From NCBI RefSeq assembly GCF_964204865.1, contig NC_135252.1, positions 15,934,001 to 15,998,000 on the forward strand: DNA of 64,000 bases, in the 5' to 3' direction. Below, piece after piece: positions 3,001 to 48,802 of the stretch. Source of the DNA: Styela clava. Lineage: Eukaryota. The position numbers and the translations under genes are program-made. Numbering within the stretch: position 1 is the first letter of the stretch; every line of letters begins with the position of its first letter. The notes beneath the pieces are model-generated. The model had not been told where the DNA came from. It saw only the letters and a list, made by a program, of their open reading frames with translations, and searched no databases.

Positions 3001-4468
3001 TGATGAGTGAAATTGAAGAGAAAAACCACAAAAACGAAGTTGATCAAACCACATTATTAACAATTCTAACTACCTGGTTTGAATAAAAGTTGCAGAACCA
3101 ATCCGAATAATTGCTCTTTGCGTCAACGGTAAATCAGAATTCATTAAAGACTGCGGACATGATTTTGAATCAGAGTTCAAAAGTGCTTTAAATACATCGT
3201 CAGGCTTCAGATCCTGTAATGAGAAATAGACAAAACAATGGAAGACAAATTCAAAACTTACAGTCTGGTAGGGCCTATCAAAATTACACTTGGCATGATG
3301 ATCAGTGTCAAACTAAGGTGAACAAATAACTCATTCGACTGAACAAAAATTTTATAAATAGAAAAAAATGTTGATATCAAAAAATGTAACAATGCTAAAT
3401 AGTGTACCTTGATAACGTCAATTTCTTCAATTAGTCTTTCAGCTCTTCTTTTGTTTTTTGACAATTGCATCTCATTTCCCCTAGAAATAATAAGAACATT
3501 TTATTGCCAATTTAGCAACATGATACATGTCCATAGTACATGGTGCTAGTTTGCATTTCACAACTCAGTGGCACTCACATGAGTACCGATGAGTACTAGT
3601 CCATTACACACTATTAAATGTTAAAGTGAGACTTGTTTAAGTTCGAGCCAATACGATAAGAAGTCAGCTCAGGTAGAATATTACACAGAACTGAAGTTCA
3701 GGAAAAAGATTTCTGGCATTTTTGACTAGACTCCGACTAGAAGATGCTAGAGAGATCTTGCAGCCAGCATGTGAAGACAACAGAAAATTTTTTTGAAGGA
3801 AGCAAGTTTCGAAAGATTAAAAGAAGTACCATTTGGGTGTCATATGCAATCAACATTGAACATAAACACTGTTGGGAATGATGAAATGAAAATTTTCAAT
3901 TCAAATCAAAGTAATGAACCAATGCTGTTTAGTGATTCTATAATCGGTACATAAAAAATTGATGATGACAATGTTGTTTCTTCAAATTTTAAATCAAAAT
4001 ATAAATTAAAAATATAAAATTAGATTGAATAAAGTTAAGTTATCATAGTATTGGGTGATATGAAATAAACTATCATTACTCTCATTCCTTACTTTTTATT
4101 GCGAAGATTCCGAACATTCCGAACAAGTTTTGTAATTGCCCATATCTTCCCTCGTTTGATTTCCTTTCTCATTTTTATCATCTAAAAGAAGTTGAATAAT
4201 ATTCATATTTTAGACTCCATAAACTTTGAGATACTTTTGTTGTGTATTTAAATGCAAATTGACAGTAAACTTTATCTTATTCAGCAGGTGAAATATTTAT
4301 GTCAATGTTGATATATTTTTGGTGCCAGATTTCCGTACCTCAAAAGAGAGAGAGAGAGGAAGATCGAAATATATGTGACACACAATTCTGCATTATTAAA
4401 ATGTCATTTATTCTCACTCATATTATTTAGGCACTCACCTCATTGTTGATATCACAGGTCGATTCCAT
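1..4468 (-). CDS. SRFBP1: Serum response factor-binding protein 1 (BUD22 family), multi-exon, 3' end outside window
   Basis: Exons joined with GT-AG sites and consistent phases (approx. 4468-4439, 4181-4093, 3480-3408, 3213-3074, 2528-2422, 2017-1707, 1544-1445, 1093-988, 553-457) give MESTCDINNE-MIKMRKEIKRGKIWAITKLVRNVRNLRNKKGNEMQLSKNKRRAERLIEEIDVIK-DLKPDDVFKALL...TQRAIIRIG. This matches the recalled SRFBP1 N-terminus (LNNEVVKMRKEVKR...KNQRRAQRLLEEI...ELKPD...TERAIARL) and is followed by an acidic low-complexity middle. Confidence 0.88.
900..957. repeat. 29-bp direct tandem duplication in SRFBP1 intron
   Basis: GATTTTCCATTCAGTCATAGATAATATTG occurs twice head to tail. Confidence 0.85.
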
Positions 4469-4768
4469 AGGTCTGGTAGGTCCAGGATACGAACGTCTGA
4501 ACGTAGTTAATGATATTAGAACAGCACTTTTACAGTTTTAGGAAGTTGTAGCTTAATTATCCAATTACGTACTGAATTATCGAAAAGATATCATGACTAA
4601 TGAAATTGAGTTCAGATACTGAAGTACAGTATATTTTGACAATTTTGTGTCTATACAACCATAATCCAGTAATCAGCATAACAGTCAATAAAATAAATGA
4701 TAAAAACAAACAAATTACAGTATAAAATATGAAGAGGATCAGAAATATGGCAGAATTATAAGAGTACC

Positions 4769-5129
4769 GGCGCGGCGGTGTGTCTCAACGGGCTAAGAGT
4801 TAGGAATACGCTCGCCACCGCACCTCTAATTACTCTGCGTGGGTTCGCAGGTTCGAATCCCATGCAGGGATGGTTATGTGCGAGAGGATTGCTGGACTCC
4901 TCGCCGTCGTTGGGTGGTTCACGTAACCGCTGGTCGGTTACCTACGGCTTCCTCCACCACCAAGTCCATGCTTCCGAAAACAAACAATATACGGTACCGG
5001 TACGGTACCTAATCCCATACCCGACTTGGAATGGTAACCGAACGAAAGGCGGTGGTTCGCCATATGAATAGGCCGTCTTATCGTCTTTCCTCTCCCCTAG
5101 GATAAATATGTAAATCCTATCCTATCCTA
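4769..5129 (+). mobile_element. tRNA-derived SINE, family A, full-length copy 1
   Basis: A-box-like TGTCTCAACGGG, B-box GGTTCGAATCCC, body shared with other copies in the window, (ATCCT)n tail. Confidence 0.85.
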
Positions 5130-5329
5130 CCGGTACCGTACCGGTAAGCCGTACCCAACATCTTTAGTACAGTAACATCAGTCCTGCACCTGAAGTCTGC
5201 TAGAAGAAGTTACGGTAGCCTAACCATTTTAAAGTACAGAAGTGTGATATCCCAAAATAGAGATACACTACATTACAAAGCAAACGGTGAAACCAAATTA
5301 CGGTCCTTCAACAAGTCGTAATTACACGT

Positions 5330-5560
5330 CCCAGACACGAAACAGGTACGGCAAACGACAAATGCAAGCTTCAAGCATGGCGCTCAGCGAGCATGTTGAT
5401 ATTTTTTTCAAAGCACCGACTTCCTTGTTTACTTCCGTGATATTGAAAAATGAGCAAAATGTCAAAGGTAACGTAACAATCGATTTTTTTTACTCGGAGC
5501 GATTTTTAGTCGTGATTACAGAGATAACATACAGGTCAAGACCGCAATGATCGTGGTTTT
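5330..5560 (-). promoter_or_regulatory. Putative SRFBP1 promoter (locally CpG-rich, ETS-like ACTTCC motifs)
   Basis: CpG density above flanks; GACTTCCT and ACTTCCGT at about 5418-5438; about 0.9 kb upstream of the SRFBP1 ATG. Confidence 0.4.
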
Positions 5561-5634
5561 GCTAGCTACGGTATTTTTCAGTTCTTAGTTTTTGAAATTT
5601 AGGTATACACCATTGGATTTTAGTTTAGTTGCAG

Positions 5635-5740
5635 TACCGTGTTTCCCGAAAATAAGACTGGGTCTTTTTTTTCAATTTTCTACCGAAAAATAACACTGGG
5701 GCTTATTTTCGGGGGATGTCTTATATATTTATTTATCAAA
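5635..5740 (+). mobile_element. Tc2/pogo-like (TcMar) non-autonomous element end
   Basis: TA followed by CCGTGTTTCCCGAAAATAAGACTGGGTC...GGGCTTATTTTCGGGGGATGTCTTAT; partner end not found. Confidence 0.6.
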
Positions 5741-6015
5741 AGCGAACTTACAAGTAGAGAATTACTAGATTTTCAAATGTACAAAATATGAAAACCGATA
5801 TCCCTTTTTCTATAAATAACACGTTTTTATTAAAATAACTGCAAAACGTAGATTATCAATCATTTAAATATCCCATATTTACGTCTAGATCAAATACTGG
5901 TAACTTCATAGTCATTTTGTCTAACGGTTTCATTTTTAAAAGCACTAATACCGTTAGCGAATTTATTCTGGCTGCTTTTTCGGGACCCAATTTTAATTAA
6001 TATACCGGTACTAGT

Positions 6016-6120
6016 ACAGTGTTTCCCCGAAAATAAGACCTACCCTGTAAATAAGACCTAGCCTGAATTTTAAAAATGATTCTAATATAAGCCCTCCTCC
6101 CCTTAAAATAAGACCTAGTC
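6016..6120 (+). mobile_element. Tc2/pogo-like element end (second, truncated copy)
   Basis: TA-CAGTGTTTCCCCGAAAATAAGACC with subterminal AAATAAGACC repeats; near-identical terminus to the 5635 copy. Confidence 0.6.
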
Positions 6121-6461
6121 AATAACGCGAATATTTTTTTGATTTAGTCGATAGCCATCTTTCCTACACGTTTTAAATATGGGATGGCATGGAACCAAAA
6201 CGACCAGCAAAACCAGTCTATGATTACAACCATGCCTTGAACTCAGTCTGAGACTCTTGAGTAGCTGCTAAAATTGAAATTGTCCCCAGAACCAAAATAT
6301 CGCACAAGCGCTACCGGTATACGGTATACATTAACGCTAAACGCTGTAATCAAATATTTGTGCTGTTTACTGTGCATTCGGTAAACGTTCAGAAACGCGA
6401 TGTAGACTCCCTTAACTTGAAATTTCACGTTATCAACAGGACCGAAGTACGACCAATAATT

Positions 6462-9145: not shown

Positions 9146-12100
9146 TTACATGATGGCACAAGATATATTGAAAGCATTACAACAAGAACAAAAACGAGCT
9201 TCTCTAAATTCTCGAGGCGGAATCAAGTCCAATTCCTCATCATCTGGCATTTCATCGAGTCTATATCCATCTTTTTCTAATTGTTTTGTTAATTGCCTAT
9301 TGACTTGATTTGCAGTTGGTCTTGTGTAAGATAAAAATAGGTCATCCTCATCATCGCTGTAGATAAATAAATAATTTAAGAGGGTACCTCATGATAGGAC
9401 TGGGATCTTTACAACTAGAAAACAAGAGCTTTCACACAGTTCAGAGTCCGCAATAAAGTGTTGTGTTAATATTTGCTATATAAAGTCAGCACTTATATAA
9501 GTAAAAGAGGACATAATGTTCACCTTTCACATTGTGCTGAAAGATTGTAAATCTGATTGTTCTTCATGACACAAAATAAAAATGGCTTTAAAATATAACT
9601 TGGCCATTTATATGTAACATTAAGAGAGTATGAAACTGAGATATGACTCCTCGTCGATTATATGTAAAAATATTTTAATAACTGACATACAACAAAAGGG
9701 TTGCCCAAGAGTCACACAATCTGCAACTTTTGACAACAGTCTTGTCCAATTGCTAAAACTACATTTTAACTAAAATGAATGACTTATACCAAGAGAATAA
9801 CATATTTATTAAAGGCTATATGAACAGAACTATATGAACATTGAACACCCTGTACAATTTACACTTCAAAGGAAATAAAAAACTCTTTCGAAAGATTTGA
9901 GATTACAAGTAAATCGATTAGCATTAACTAAACACTGTAAAAAATTCTGAATTCGCTTAGATGTGTGAATATGAATTTTTGATTAAATTAATAGGAATTA
10001 TAAAGTTTTGATCAGATCCACTGAAGAGTTACATGACATTTAATATGACATTATATCAAACTCTATAACAAATATATTTTATCAAATTGTTAATAGCTTT
10101 CGTCTAAACATACCTGTCAGACTCCAATTTTAATAATGGTGAATTATCTAATCTTTGGTATTTCCCTGAATTTGGAACTTGCAACCTGCGATGAATAAAT
10201 ATTGGATGGGATAATCAGGAGGAAAAGATAAGCACAGGCATAAAAATTATATATGTTTTAATATACTACAAATGGTCTTTTTTCCGCTTCAAAGAAATTA
10301 TAAAATTAAATAAATTTGAATACTTGCAAATAGAAATTGAACCTTTATTGTTAGAGATAATAATCCATAAAAACGTTGCATGGCCTAACAATAAAACATT
10401 TGAGCACGGTAAGGTTGTCACAAATTACCAAACCTCCCTCTCTAAGGCTTCTGATCACCAAAAGCAAAATTACATTGAACGTGCATTCATTCCAATTCAT
10501 ATCAAACAAACATTAAAGCCCTAATTTCATGACTTTTAGAAGCCATCCGTTTCCAAATACTTCATACAATTACCATATACATTTGTACTACTGCAGATTA
10601 CAGCAATACACAACCTGCCATTTTGTGCGTGTTGTATTAATAGACTTGGGGATAACAGATAACTTACACCCCACTCCATGTTTAATATTTGGAGAAGCTT
10701 TCAATAAATTACAATACTTGGAAGAATATGCAGACCAGAGTTCAAAAGTGTTAAAAACCATTTTATATTCTGGGCTCTGTCTACTATTAGACCAGAGTAA
10801 TTACATGTAAACTTGCATCATATGAAGCATATAAATACCATCAAAACATTTTCAAAATCAATAAAAGTTCTGAGTCATGAGATCAATATTCAAGTACTAT
10901 TGATATGACTTCCTTTACAGACAAGAATCACATTATTACTTACGGTATATTTCAAGACGACAATAATTAAAAATAAATATTAATAGATAAAAATATTTAA
11001 TTCGTCTGTCGGTTTGGGTTTGTTATTAGTTTCGTGTTTCGATTGAAACAAAAGAAACCTATTCAAAAATATTAAGATGGATCTTGAAAATAAAAAGCAG
11101 AAAGAGTAAACAATTTGCCTATAACATACATCCTCAATTTATAGTATACTATAAGATCCTTGACATCAGGCATTAAATTTTCGACTATTATCGCGAAACT
11201 TGCATGCCTGTGATAAACCAACCCCAAAAATATGAGAAATTGAACTGACCTGGCAACAGACATTAGACTTGTTTTCTTTGGTTCTTTCGTTACAGTGACC
11301 GTCATACTTGCTTTTGCAAAAGGCTTGCGTTCTTTTCTTGTCTTATTTGACTGATATCTGAAAACAAAATTTATGCTTTGAAGCTCATATTTTTGATTAT
11401 TTTCAAATCATATAAAACTATTCTTAAAATCAACAATGTAAACAACAGGATACAATTAAAATCAAATCGACCAATCATACAATTTATTTCAGGCATCCTT
11501 GGTTCAAACATTTCTAATTGTTCACAAATTAATATGACACTTCTCTACGTAACCTACTATTTTGAAAGCTGAGAAAATTCCAATCCCAACTTCACAACAA
11601 ATTTAATTGGGCCAAAGCCGAGCATATTAATATTTGAGCCTTCTCAAAAATCCTTGTCATTTGAGTGATGATCTCTACTAATCTCTCAAGGCAATAAATA
11701 TACTTGGTTCCAAACGGCCAATTAACGCTGGGATGAAAAATTGAATAATTTTTCATAGTCAATTACTTGGTTAGATTATATAACGTATTTTCACTTCCAC
11801 AATGTAGTATTCATGTGTATATACAGTATCTATAATGTGGGAATGAACAAGTGTAGGCCTATACGTGTTTAATACATGTCCAAGGGAAAAGCAGATAATC
11901 CTTATGATAATTAAACTCCCGGAAACTTTTTACAACATACTTTTCTAACTTATCTACAGCGCTTGAGAAGCAGAGCAAAATAATTTGATATTTACGAAAA
12001 TACAAACCTTGCCGTCAATGGATGACTTTCATTTGAACTCTGAAAGGTGAAAAGAGTTAATTAAATCATGTATATTAATATCTACTTAACACTTATACAA

Positions 12101-13352: not shown

Positions 13353-13609
13353 ATGCAGGGATGGTTATGTGCGAGAGGATTGCTGGACTCCTCGCCGTCG
13401 TTGGGTGGTTCACGTAACCGCTGGTCGGTTACGGCTTCCTCCACCACCAAGTCCATGCTTTCGAAAACAAACAATACAGTAAAACTAATCCCATACCCGA
13501 CTTGGAATGGTAACCGGACGAGAGGCCGTGGTTCGCCATATGGATAAGCCGTCTTATCGGCTTTCCTCTCCCCCGGGATAAATATGTAAATCCTATCCTA
13601 TCCTATCCT
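13353..13609 (+). mobile_element. SINE family A copy 3, 5'-truncated
   Basis: Starts after the B box (ATGCAGGGATGG...), near-identical body, about four ATCCT tail units. Confidence 0.85.
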
Positions 13610-46377: not shown

Positions 46378-48802
46378 ATGTTAATAAGAGGATGTTCAAT
46401 ACATAAATTGGTTCACAATATCAAGTCATGTACCTTCATACAAAATGCATTTTGTGCTGTGATTGAGAATGGAAAGAGTTACGCAACGCTTCACCAACCT
46501 GTGATGGTGAAAGAAGTTTTGAATGCTTTATATCCTCAAAATGGTGATATAATTCTTGATATGACGTTTGGTGCTGGAGGACACACAAAAGCAATTCTCG
46601 AGAATTGCCCCGATTGCAAAATAATTGCACTTGACAGAGATCCATATGCAAATAGTCTTGCTCAACAATTAAGAGAGGAAACCAGGTTGGTAATAGTCAC
46701 TGCTAGCATGTTTGATACCAAAAAAGTTAAAATATATAACAATAAATACTCAAATCTGTTTGGAGCGAAGCAAAAATGTACTACAGCTAAAAATGATTTA
46801 CATGTCACTTGTACAGCACCTATTAAAAAAAGGGAACTAACCTGTCACTATCAAATATAAAGTTTAGTAGAGAATGGGTCTTCCCTACCTGCAACCCTTC
46901 AATTAGTATGTGAAATTATTAATCATTTTTTTAAATAAAATAAAAATTTTGACAGCTCTTCAGAATCAATTATTACAATGGGTCATAATATTCTTTTGGA
47001 GTAGAATCCTTTTGTTAAAATAGCAATGAGGAGGCCTCCGAGTGCTTTTCAATTTCTTAACTTTCATGTATTCATAGTGCATCTATCAGTCATCCTTGGT
47101 TTCCACAACTTACCGGTATGTCCTTTTGCTGCTCTGATATATATTTATGGGCATCCAATTTGATCATATTATAAAAACACTACTTCACAGCGAAAGAGTA
47201 ATCCCAGTTCTTGGGAGATTCAGTGAGTTGGAGAAGATTTTTCAGCATCTTAAAATCGAAGAAATCAATGGAGCTATTCTGGATGCAGGTTGCTCATCAA
47301 TGCAATTCGATACCGGTAGAAGAGGATTTGCAATATCAAAGGATGGACCTTTGGACATGAGAATGGATGGTGACAGGTTATTACAATCGAATTTCCAAGT
47401 TTTATAATACCTTCTAGTTAGGTTGTGATGCTTTACCATATTTTCACAAGGTATCCAGACATGCCAAGTGCTGCTGATGTTGTGAACAGAATGAGTGCAA
47501 AGGATTTAGCGGAGATATTATGTAAGTGATTGTATATATATTGAGTAGATGCGTAACTAGAGTGATGATCAAAAATGGATAATGAATTTTATTATTAGAT
47601 AAGTATGGTGATGAAAGATATGCTCACAAAATAGCAAGAAAGATCATTCAATATCGAAGTGAGGTTGGACCAATTGGACGAACTCGGGAACTTGCCAACA
47701 TTGTTAAAAGTGCTTTCGATGAATGGCCGAAATCAGGCCTCAGAAAAGATGCTTTGAACAGGACGTGAGTGAAAATTTCGGAATGATATTCAAAAGAATA
47801 TTTCCTTAGTAACAGCTTTTTTACAAGTGTATTTATCTGAATTAAACACCATTTTTTGATAACTGATTAACGACAAGTAAACTTCTGAATTGTCTATCTT
47901 AAAAATATATGATATGTCAAAGTATGAAATATGCATTAACGTCTAGCACACTTCAGAGATAATAAATGTCACTGCCAATGTGACAAAGCTTGATATGAGG
48001 GTAATTACATACAATTGATTGAAATATATTCTGTCTACTACAGAGCACATAGTGCAACAAAAACATTCATGGCTATAAGGATATTTGTGAATAATGAACT
48101 CAACGAACTGCATGAAGGTCTGAAAACTGTTGAAAGGTACATGAAAAAGGGTAAGTGATTTAAATTCAGGATTGAAAACCCAAGCTGAATCCAACAGTGT
48201 AATGTTTTGGTCACATCGACATAACGAGTGAATTTTCAGTTTTTTGCAATACAATCTCGCTTGAAAACTATATATTTGCGGCGGTTAGTCAAATCTCGGT
48301 TTGAACTTTGAGCATTTGCAACAATGTATTAACAATCTTATCTTTCAGGTGGACGACTGACTGCCATCACCTTTCACTCTTTGGAGGATGTGATTGTCAA
48401 AAGGGTGATATCAGGAAGGGATCTGCATAAACCGAGAGGAATGTCATTATCTCAGCAGGTTTTTTTATGCATGTTTGCTTATGATATTTTGGACCTGTCT
48501 TCTGCATTTAAACATGCCACAAGTTTGATAAATGCAGGAACCTTTTGCCCAAGATGCTGGGCCCATAATAATTGTTCAAAATAGTTTGCCAATGTTGTTT
48601 TGTTATCTTTCATAAAGCGCTCCCCTTGCTCATTCTATCATCATTTGGTTAACAGCGCAGGATAGAATCTGCAAGTGAAATAAAACCAGAGAGAAAATGG
48701 ATGACTTTGAATAAGAAGATTGTTATACCACAATTCGATGAAGTGGATGACAATGCAAGATCTCGTTCCGCCAAACTTCGGTCAGCGACGAGGATAACTT
48801 GA
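46378..48802 (+). CDS. METTL15: Mitochondrial 12S rRNA m4C methyltransferase (RsmH/MraW family), 7 coding exons
   Basis: [101 protein letters not shown]. Exons approx. 46378-46685, 47191-47376, 47450-47521, 47600-47764, 48043-48149, 48349-48457, 48656-48802. Confidence 0.93.

Follow-up and report, generated by a model that had tools for sequence, protein, structure and literature searches.

What produced the short TA-bounded words that crowd the DNA upstream of an inferred SRFBP1 gene in Styela clava? The window analysed here is a stretch of 64,000 nucleotides (assembly GCF_964204865.1, contig NC_135252.1, positions 15,934,001 to 15,998,000 of the forward strand), and between its positions 4625 and 6330 (1,706 bp), 470-1,860 bp upstream of the inferred SRFBP1 ATG, it holds such words singly and in stacks (Table 1). 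A sequence-only reading had taken them for scars of Tc1/mariner transposons that hit and left the same few TA sites repeatedly, and a position check found every listed word in the window sequence at its claimed coordinates. We consider it highly probable (roughly 0.87) that the CCGG, CCG, CGG and CC units between the TAs are inherited excision scars, left by CCG-ended Fot-like pogo elements that land in accessible DNA near gene starts and prefer targets which they have made themselves. The cluster comprises 11 CCG-type words (TACCGGTA, TACCGTA or TACGGTA) in 6 sites. As background we used 400 kb of sequence, namely 40 evenly spaced 10-kb pieces of the genome, with expectations from an order-2 Markov model; among 200 equal tiles of this random sample the maxima were 5 sites and 6 words, and none reached 6 sites. 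Over the whole window, TACCGGTA occurred 10 times versus 0.5 expected, and TACCGTA/TACGGTA 16 times versus 5.

That these words arose by insertion is visible in copies of a young short interspersed nuclear element (SINE), one of which lies inside the cluster. The units at 4939 and 4988 had been described as extra relative to sibling SINEs, and this was borne out, as both are absent from 29/29 other best-matching copies, chosen by likeness to the window copy; alignment to the SINE consensus likewise showed that CCG-type words are no part of it. Genome-wide, the TA of 4939 carries 19 insertion alleles: 10 unambiguous scars (CCGG three times, CCGG+CCGG, CCGG+CCG twice, CCG twice, one of these with a mutated TA, CCG+CGGG, and the CC of the window copy), 4 ambiguous ones and 5 others. 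One SINE copy holds at this TA a full 2.16-kb CCG-ended element, TA-CCGTAAAAG...TTTACGG-TA, after which the SINE resumes. Counted across paralogous SINE copies, the empty, full and scarred states of a single TA thus number 1,742, 1 and 10-14. Two span scans accepted any insertion between fixed anchors and covered five further TAs plus the bases between them. TA-core-TA insertions made up 10 of 26 alleles in one (CCGG five times, CGG, GCC, CCG, CCAG and ACC) and 8 of 19 in the other (CCGG six times, one mutated, and CCG twice); all were at TAs, CCGG was the commonest core in both, and in neither scan did a CCG-type word turn up away from a TA. TA-CCGG-TA, TA-CCG-TA and TA-CGG-TA are therefore insertions at TAs that were already there, each of which became duplicated. 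Of the SINE copies with an insertion at the TA of 4939, 6/19 bore another scar at a different TA, versus 2/79 (hand count; Fisher p 6e-4).

Other events were seen in the SINE copies as well. An extra TA alone was inserted in six genomic copies covered by the span scans, at a SINE site other than that of the consensus TACAGTA discussed below. Insertions of a second class duplicate 5-6 bp of the upstream flank and add, right behind a TA, a filler of 2-3 bases whose first base is C (as in GGAATA-CA-GGAATA; for example L069, G000:C6:5733444, C6:11703708 and C4:9232962); this is possibly templated repair after excision, or the scar of another superfamily.

The words are abundant far beyond this locus. 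In the random 400 kb, TACCGGTA was counted 29 times versus 2.9 expected (about 10x) and ranked fourth among enriched 8-mers, behind poly-C and two AT repeats, while other NNCCGGNN palindromes showed no enrichment. TACCGTA/TACGGTA came to 64 versus 28 expected, with 7 of the 64 continuing like an element end, and TAGCCTA/TAGGCTA to 49 versus 23 (2.1x). The predicted genome-wide excess over a Markov background thus held for the CCG-type and GCC words and failed for TACAGTA/TACTGTA (95 versus 70.5, only 1.35x), for TACTAGTA (5 versus 5.4, 0.9x) and for the CC words discussed below; TACCGCGGTA did not occur in the sample (0.1 expected), and TAGGGTA/TACCCTA stood at 1.0x. Another strongly enriched word, TAGGCCATA (13.5x), was discarded because it belongs to an unrelated repeat. 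Extrapolated to 377 Mb, the CCG-type words amount to about 50,000 in excess, and the double word TACCGGTACCGGTA occurs 1,090 times genome-wide versus 5 for its reversed control.

We then related the words to genes, using 62 anchors, the first domain exons in 40 Ras-family genes and in 22/30 DnaJ loci; the 8 DnaJ loci that were dropped had no nearby in-frame ATG, and several of them have upstream scars. The upstream kilobase held 0.81 sites/kb versus 0.22 in random and 0.13 in downstream sequence (rate p ~1e-11, paired p 3e-5). The supposed enrichment near gene starts was thus found, at 3.7x random for all sites and 5x for TACCGGTA alone; CpG-free GCC words reached 2.6x, and other CCGG 8-mers 0.85x. 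At least one upstream site was present in only 26/62 genes. The SRFBP1 hot spot itself is strong but one of many, and 1/40 Ras loci has a 7-site cluster. It had also been suggested that scars seed new CpG dinucleotides near promoters. Locally they do, contributing 11/78 CpGs of the stretch, whereas CG density in the upstream kilobases (27.6 per kb) was not above random (29.4 per kb). Distances between pairs of scars show clustering to about 350 bp.

Which elements could have made the scars? A DDE_1 domain search of the genome gave 126 matches, and at least five CCG-ended, TA-flanked families were recognized, including two Passer-like ones, the miniature inverted-repeat transposable element (MITE) family of the window, and a Fot-like clade. 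As anticipated, the scar cores correspond to the tips of the terminal inverted repeats (TIRs) of resident TA-duplicating elements, CCG, CGG, CCGG and CC being their first or last 2-4 bases. A Tc1/mariner-type origin was correct as regards the TA duplication and the 2-4-base tips; the candidate makers, however, belong to pogo, a superfamily separate from Tc1/mariner (Gao et al. 2020, PMC7386202; here and below, statements on cited papers refer to the portions of their text that were available). The Fot-like assignment is based on domain content (HTH_psq plus DDE_1, with Pfam matches at loci L242 and L230), DD35D spacing and TA duplication. One Fot-like family of 2,938 bp (L230 type) has 100% identical copies on seven chromosomes and one of 99.8% identity on another, and its two frames are separated by a GT-AG intron; judged from these sequences it is likely still active, with an apparently intact transposase. 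At its 16 ends, position -1 is G in 13/16 and position -2 a purine in 16/16 (hand count). A sister Fot-like family has 270 ends by exact pattern; its statistics concern the first 75 ends listed, which became 70 after a duplicated group was collapsed, with the last 25, from a segmental array, excluded. Among these, G stood at -1 in 44/70 (hand count) and 12/70 directly abutted an exact scar, compared with baselines of 0.27% of TAs genome-wide and, within hot neighbourhoods, 2.5% of TAs and 5.9% of G-TA (p 1e-18, 2e-7 and 8e-4, respectively). Fot-like elements sit at RG-TA-CY, and the flanks of isolated TACCGGTA words have G at -1 in 38% versus 17.6% and G at -2 in 35% versus 17%, with G-TA-C (GTAC) at 3.3x and C-TA-G at 0.47x.

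Two arrays of such elements were encountered. Six head-to-tail, 100% identical 2,938-bp copies with a single TA between each lie at G000:C6:21823670-21841296 (L232, L274), which on one reading reflects tandem insertion at a preferred target, as the element end gives GG-TA, and on another unequal crossing-over. At G000:C5:5.64-5.99 Mb (L242, L267, L272) a segmental array contains many Fot-like elements and scars that abut one another.

The other resident families fit the scars less well. For the window MITE family (1,784 candidates genome-wide by a first-look count) 11/24 ends favour C-TA, the flank at which scars are depleted, and 0/24 abut a scar, so we rejected it as main maker. The sequence-only reading had seen two pogo-like ends at 5635 and 6016; these are CCG-ended, but they are opposite ends of a single MITE in which the right part has been inverted (over about 320 bp, window 5856-6210). 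The two Passer-like families (L091/L094) have BrkDBD and HTH_Tnp_Tc5 domains, DD35D and copies 96-99% identical, and agree with Passer in length (400-500 aa), in TIRs under 30 bp and in TA duplication. They too were set aside as main makers, with G at -1 in 1/9 and 0/9 ends and 0/9 ends abutting a scar in each, small samples both. Other TA-flanked DD35D families, with GGGGAG ends and copies 97-98% identical, were noted at L110, L113, L236-L238, L240, L243, L277, L280, L286 and L291; given the absence of enrichment of TAGGGTA/TACCCTA, they leave no comparable mass of scars. A further 4.09-kb DDE_1 element, 99% identical at L226, L227 and L228 (C2:20.71 Mb, C14:0.38 Mb and C6:6.14 Mb), has an open frame of about 690 aa and ends TAGGGTG...CACCCTA, with no flank base in common.

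Repeated use of the same TA, as had been proposed, is attested in several ways beyond the scar-abutting ends. At L269, TA-CCGG-TA-CC-TA-CGG-TA is followed by an element and then TA-CC-TA, which is almost the window stack at 4988 with the element still inside; similar stacks with an element exist at L268, L271, L270 and L242. In a paralogous pair, L242 has a scar alone, and L267 has an element at the left TA of that scar. Among unselected loci, a further CCG-type unit comes after TACCGGTA in 34/274 strand-wise cases (12%), 5x the hot-neighbourhood rate, with junctions CCGG-CCGG in 16, CCGG then CCG in 11 and CCGG then CGG in 7. We infer at least three events plus a small deletion for the 4988-5011 stack. 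TA-CC-TA at 4939-4944 is likely a trimmed scar, since other genomic copies have CCGG and CCG scars and a full element at the same TA, and CC units flank the element at L269.

In the mechanism that we propose, the transposase would cut 2-3 bases inside each end and leave CC(G) overhangs. Joining through CG microhomology would give CCGG, joining across a central mismatch CCG or CGG, and trimming CC; overhangs of 2 and of 3 bases would both yield CCGG, CCG and CGG, while the CC units favour 2 bases or trimming. Cutting of the non-transferred strand inside the end, 3' overhangs and end-joining are the known chemistry of ITm transposons (PMC6943129). A CCGG scar would offer half of the preferred target on either side, TA-CC to the left and GG-TA to the right, and where two scars meet, or at an element end, the full GG-TA-CC would arise. 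Because a scar would supply the preferred target, each hit would invite more, superimposed on a regional hot spot with a width of about 350 bp. Later, scars would be converted by CpG decay to TACTGGTA, TATGGTA and TACAGTA. More tentatively, with slightly less than even odds in our judgment, this may amount to a self-reinforcing ratchet, in which a GTAC-preferring pogo element writes its own ideal target on leaving, and stacks of promoter palindromes come to outnumber the elements by orders of magnitude. Such stacks would form a heritable map of germline-accessible DNA that can be read from sequence, and would account for the TA-bounded 'promoter motifs' of other eukaryotes.

As predicted from CpG decay, TACTGGTA (4.2x), TATGGTA (1.8x) and TACAGTA (1.8x) are enriched near TACCGGTA. 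This decay accounts for much of the TACAGTA excess, the word being enriched there to the same degree as the other decay product TATGGTA, and the idea that TACAGTA words are scars of a separate CAG-ended family found no support; they are more probably SINE consensus, background, or decayed TACGGTA. In particular, the TACAGTA of a second SINE copy in the window, which had been read as a scar, is the consensus of the young subfamily and is present in 27/29 other best-matching copies. Older copies have TAACTGGCTA at this consensus position (matching window 13475-13481), and the consensus TACAGTA may be an old scar that became fixed in the master copy. With no enrichment, TACTAGTA likewise found no support as the scar of a CTA family. 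GCC words are 2.1-3.5x enriched, and TA-GCC-TA was also found as an insertion at a SINE TA.

Several rival explanations were weighed. Selection could be maintaining TACCGGTA and its relatives upstream of genes as transcription-factor binding sites, which is how they have been read in Phytophthora. The 4-5x upstream enrichment would suit this, TACCGGTA (M94) and TACATGTA (M93, motif-1) are published promoter motifs (PMC3597505, PMC3520976), and a footprint origin was rejected by PMC3520976 for its own genome. Binding sites would not, however, be expected to appear in SINE copies as whole-word insertions with TA duplication, one such site holding a full element, nor to vary in unit make-up within stacks, nor to be accompanied by CpG-decayed forms at the excess given above; we regard this explanation as very improbable, though selection may filter scars after they have formed. 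Alternatively, the upstream bias could result from erasure of the words in methylated gene bodies together with selection elsewhere. Downstream of the anchors the observed/expected CpG ratio does drop, to 0.74-0.89, and only 3/106 TACCGGTA words lie in long open reading frames, which make up 9.4% of the sequence. Yet far-upstream and random DNA, with a ratio near 1, still has a low density of sites, and upstream sequence is enriched in GCC words, which contain no CpG, without being richer in CG. This possibility, taken together with that of abortive or immediately reversed integrations by the same transposases, which would leave only the tips, appears quite unlikely to us. Abortive integration would explain why full elements are outnumbered by scars roughly 14-fold at the single site for which both were counted; weighing against the pair of possibilities, surviving full elements lie in scar-rich flanks themselves (0.77 versus 0.16 strict sites per kb).

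Replication slippage could also have built most of each stack from a first unit that was either a scar or a chance word. The commonest stack, CCGG-CCGG, is a perfect tandem duplication, the CGG at the 4939 site duplicates its own flank, and several SINE alleles are plain duplications. A single duplication cannot, however, produce CCGG followed by CCG, which is as common as CCGG followed by CGG (11 versus 7), and slippage does not place sister-family ends directly against scars or full elements inside the stacks at L242, L268, L269 and L271. We therefore think slippage an unlikely main cause, and it may have added to the 16 CCGG-CCGG cases.

A number of observations weigh against scar formation by Fot-like elements. 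The empty, full and scarred states come from paralogous pairs and copies only: no pair of full and scarred alleles was found at one orthologous locus between individuals, and excision was not observed. None of the 16 ends of the 2,938-bp family abuts a scar, and the sister family, whose ends do, had no intact transposase in the copies examined, so that cross-mobilisation has to be assumed. The 4 ambiguous alleles at the 4939 TA, all CGG, could equally be flank duplications, and these as well as the CCGG-CCGG stacks can come from slippage; other insertions (tandem duplications, +TA and the rest) account for 5/19, 16/26 and 11/19 alleles at the SINE sites. The outer flanks of scarred SINEs were not significantly richer in sites than those of unscarred ones (0.89 versus 0.54 per kb, p 0.10). 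Genome-wide there is no enrichment of CC units (TACCTA/TAGGTA 155 versus 140 in the random 400 kb, 1.1x), and the GCC units are without a maker, as no GGC-ended TA-duplicating element was among the loci examined. With regard to gene starts, the anchors are coding exons and not transcription start sites (TSSs), 13/40 Ras anchors having no in-frame ATG, and 581 pair distances showed no periodicity at the nucleosome scale (200 bp).

The scars resemble footprints known from other systems. Sleeping Beauty leaves TACAGTA/TACTGTA (PMC6943129), ZB footprints measure 0-3 bp (PMC7913693), and that of Tc1 is given as taCATGta in PMC3520976. As in these ITm footprints, TA is retained on both sides with 2-4 terminal element bases between, TACCGGTA corresponding formally to TACATGTA, and TACCGTA/TACGGTA to the Sleeping Beauty pair; the known cases, by contrast, are single experimental or rare events, whereas the extrapolated 50,000 words here are natural, stacked and probably the product of a pogo-superfamily element. 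Passer, itself a pogo-superfamily element, targets AAGTACTT, favours TSSs, 5' ends and active chromatin, and leaves behind footprints of 0-4 bp (Wang et al. 2023, PMC9976928). DD35D, TA duplication and a GTAC-centred target are shared, and its bias toward TSSs and 5' ends parallels the upstream bias seen here; the best candidate makers, however, have HTH_psq and not BrkDBD, the resident Passer-like families lack the G-TA bias, and re-targeting of scars is not described for Passer in the available text of PMC9976928. By analogy with Passer, the scar sites would lie in DNA that is open chromatin in the germline. Fot-like elements are described as having HTH_psq plus DDE_1, DD35D, a length of 1.2-5.2 kb, TIRs of typically 40-60 bp and TA duplication in 50/70 (PMC7386202). 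Our candidates agree in domains, DD35D, length and TA duplication, while their terminal matches align over only about 25-33 bp; the accessible text of that paper does not treat footprints or target bias for Fot-like elements and contains 0 matches for 'footprint'.

The same or analogous words are very abundant upstream of genes in other eukaryotes, namely TACATGTA/TACCGGTA as promoter motifs in Phytophthora (PMC3520976, PMC3597505) and (ACAGT)n in Trichoplax, where it was read as a microsatellite (PMC2871265). Unlike in those reports, which speak of binding sites or a microsatellite, insertion origin, element and target bias are visible here in one genome. No genome-wide account of natural stacked footprints was found in the open full-text literature, figures, supplements and subscription papers being outside that scope. 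Excision footprints and promoter bias are each already known, and what is added here is the element, a transposase that appears intact, the three states of a single site, and a reason for stacking at the level of sequence. Counts of cut-and-paste transposons usually rest on the copies still present; departures appear in this genome to far outnumber residents, and the scars are among the genome's most over-represented words, in promoter DNA. Past transposon traffic could be measured from them and, provided that the link to chromatin is right, so could germline accessibility, with no need for chromatin data; searches for promoter motifs can return transposon scars, the same words being binding-site candidates in Phytophthora. 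Since this genome also contains an element that has identical copies and appears intact, the spectrum of footprints, the bias in targets and the re-targeting of scars are open to direct testing.

Table 1. Features of the window at and around the scar cluster (window coordinates).
Feature	Position	Strand	Remarks
SRFBP1 inferred first coding exon	4438..4468	-	MESTCDINNE, then GT donor (translation plus donor)
TACAGTA, three occurrences	4625, 4716, 5168 (4625..5174)		each about equally likely background or CpG-decayed TACGGTA
Young tRNA-like SINE copy	4769..5129	+	92-93% to top genomic copies; empty-site reference
TA-CC-TA (TACCTA)	4939-4944		4-base insertion at SINE TA
TATACGGTACCGGTACGGTACCTA stack, TA-TA-CGG-TA-CCGG-TA-CGG-TA-CC-TA	4988-5011		in place of consensus TACAGTAAAAACTA
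TACCGGTACCGTACCGGTA stack, TA-CCGG-TA-CCG-TA-CCGG-TA	5128-5146		last TA of SINE tail; exact in short-read contig 5109-5316
TACGGTAGCCTA, TA-CGG-TA-GCC-TA	5211-5222		CCG-type scar plus GCC unit from second source
TACGGTA, single TA-CGG-TA	5567-5573		likely scar; basis statistical only, no empty allele seen
CCG-ended MITE, ~400 bp	5635..6190	+	right part (~5870-6190) inverted; 12-bp inverted repeat at breakpoints
TACCGGTACTAGTA, TA-CCGG-TA-CTAG-TA	6003-6017		adjoins inverted right end of MITE; CCGG likely scar
TACCGGTATACGGTA stack, TA-CCGG-TA-TA-CGG-TA	6312-6326
FAM219A last coding exon	9146..9388	-	PF15260, E 1e-18; same-strand upstream gene, limits intergenic stretch

The sequence of the cluster is supported by short-read contigs identical to 5109-5316, 5350-5664 and 5876-6044 (0 differences), and the scars in those stretches are therefore not assembly errors; the run behind these contigs is probably from the assembled individual. 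A contig spanning 6237-6486 differs by 7 substitutions and 1 gap letter, so that it cannot lack the 6312 stack. It is probably the second haplotype, which suggests that this stack is present on both. Short reads of another individual gave only 0-3x depth in unique sequence at the locus and were dominated by repeats.

SRFBP1 lies on the minus strand, with its BUD22 domain at the 3' end of the gene just left of the window (L225); the N-terminus encoded by the putative first exon probably resembles that of SRFBP1. A short plus-strand frame at 5378-5470, possibly an exon or promoter core, starts ATGGCG, ends at GT and adjoins CTTCCG, presumably an ETS-like motif. This frame, which could mark a divergent gene, had no Pfam match, and two RNA runs of guessed relevance contained no exon signal. 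Elsewhere in the window, CCG-type words lie about 200 bp apart within introns, at 2180, 2380 and 2582 and again at 47111 and 47311.

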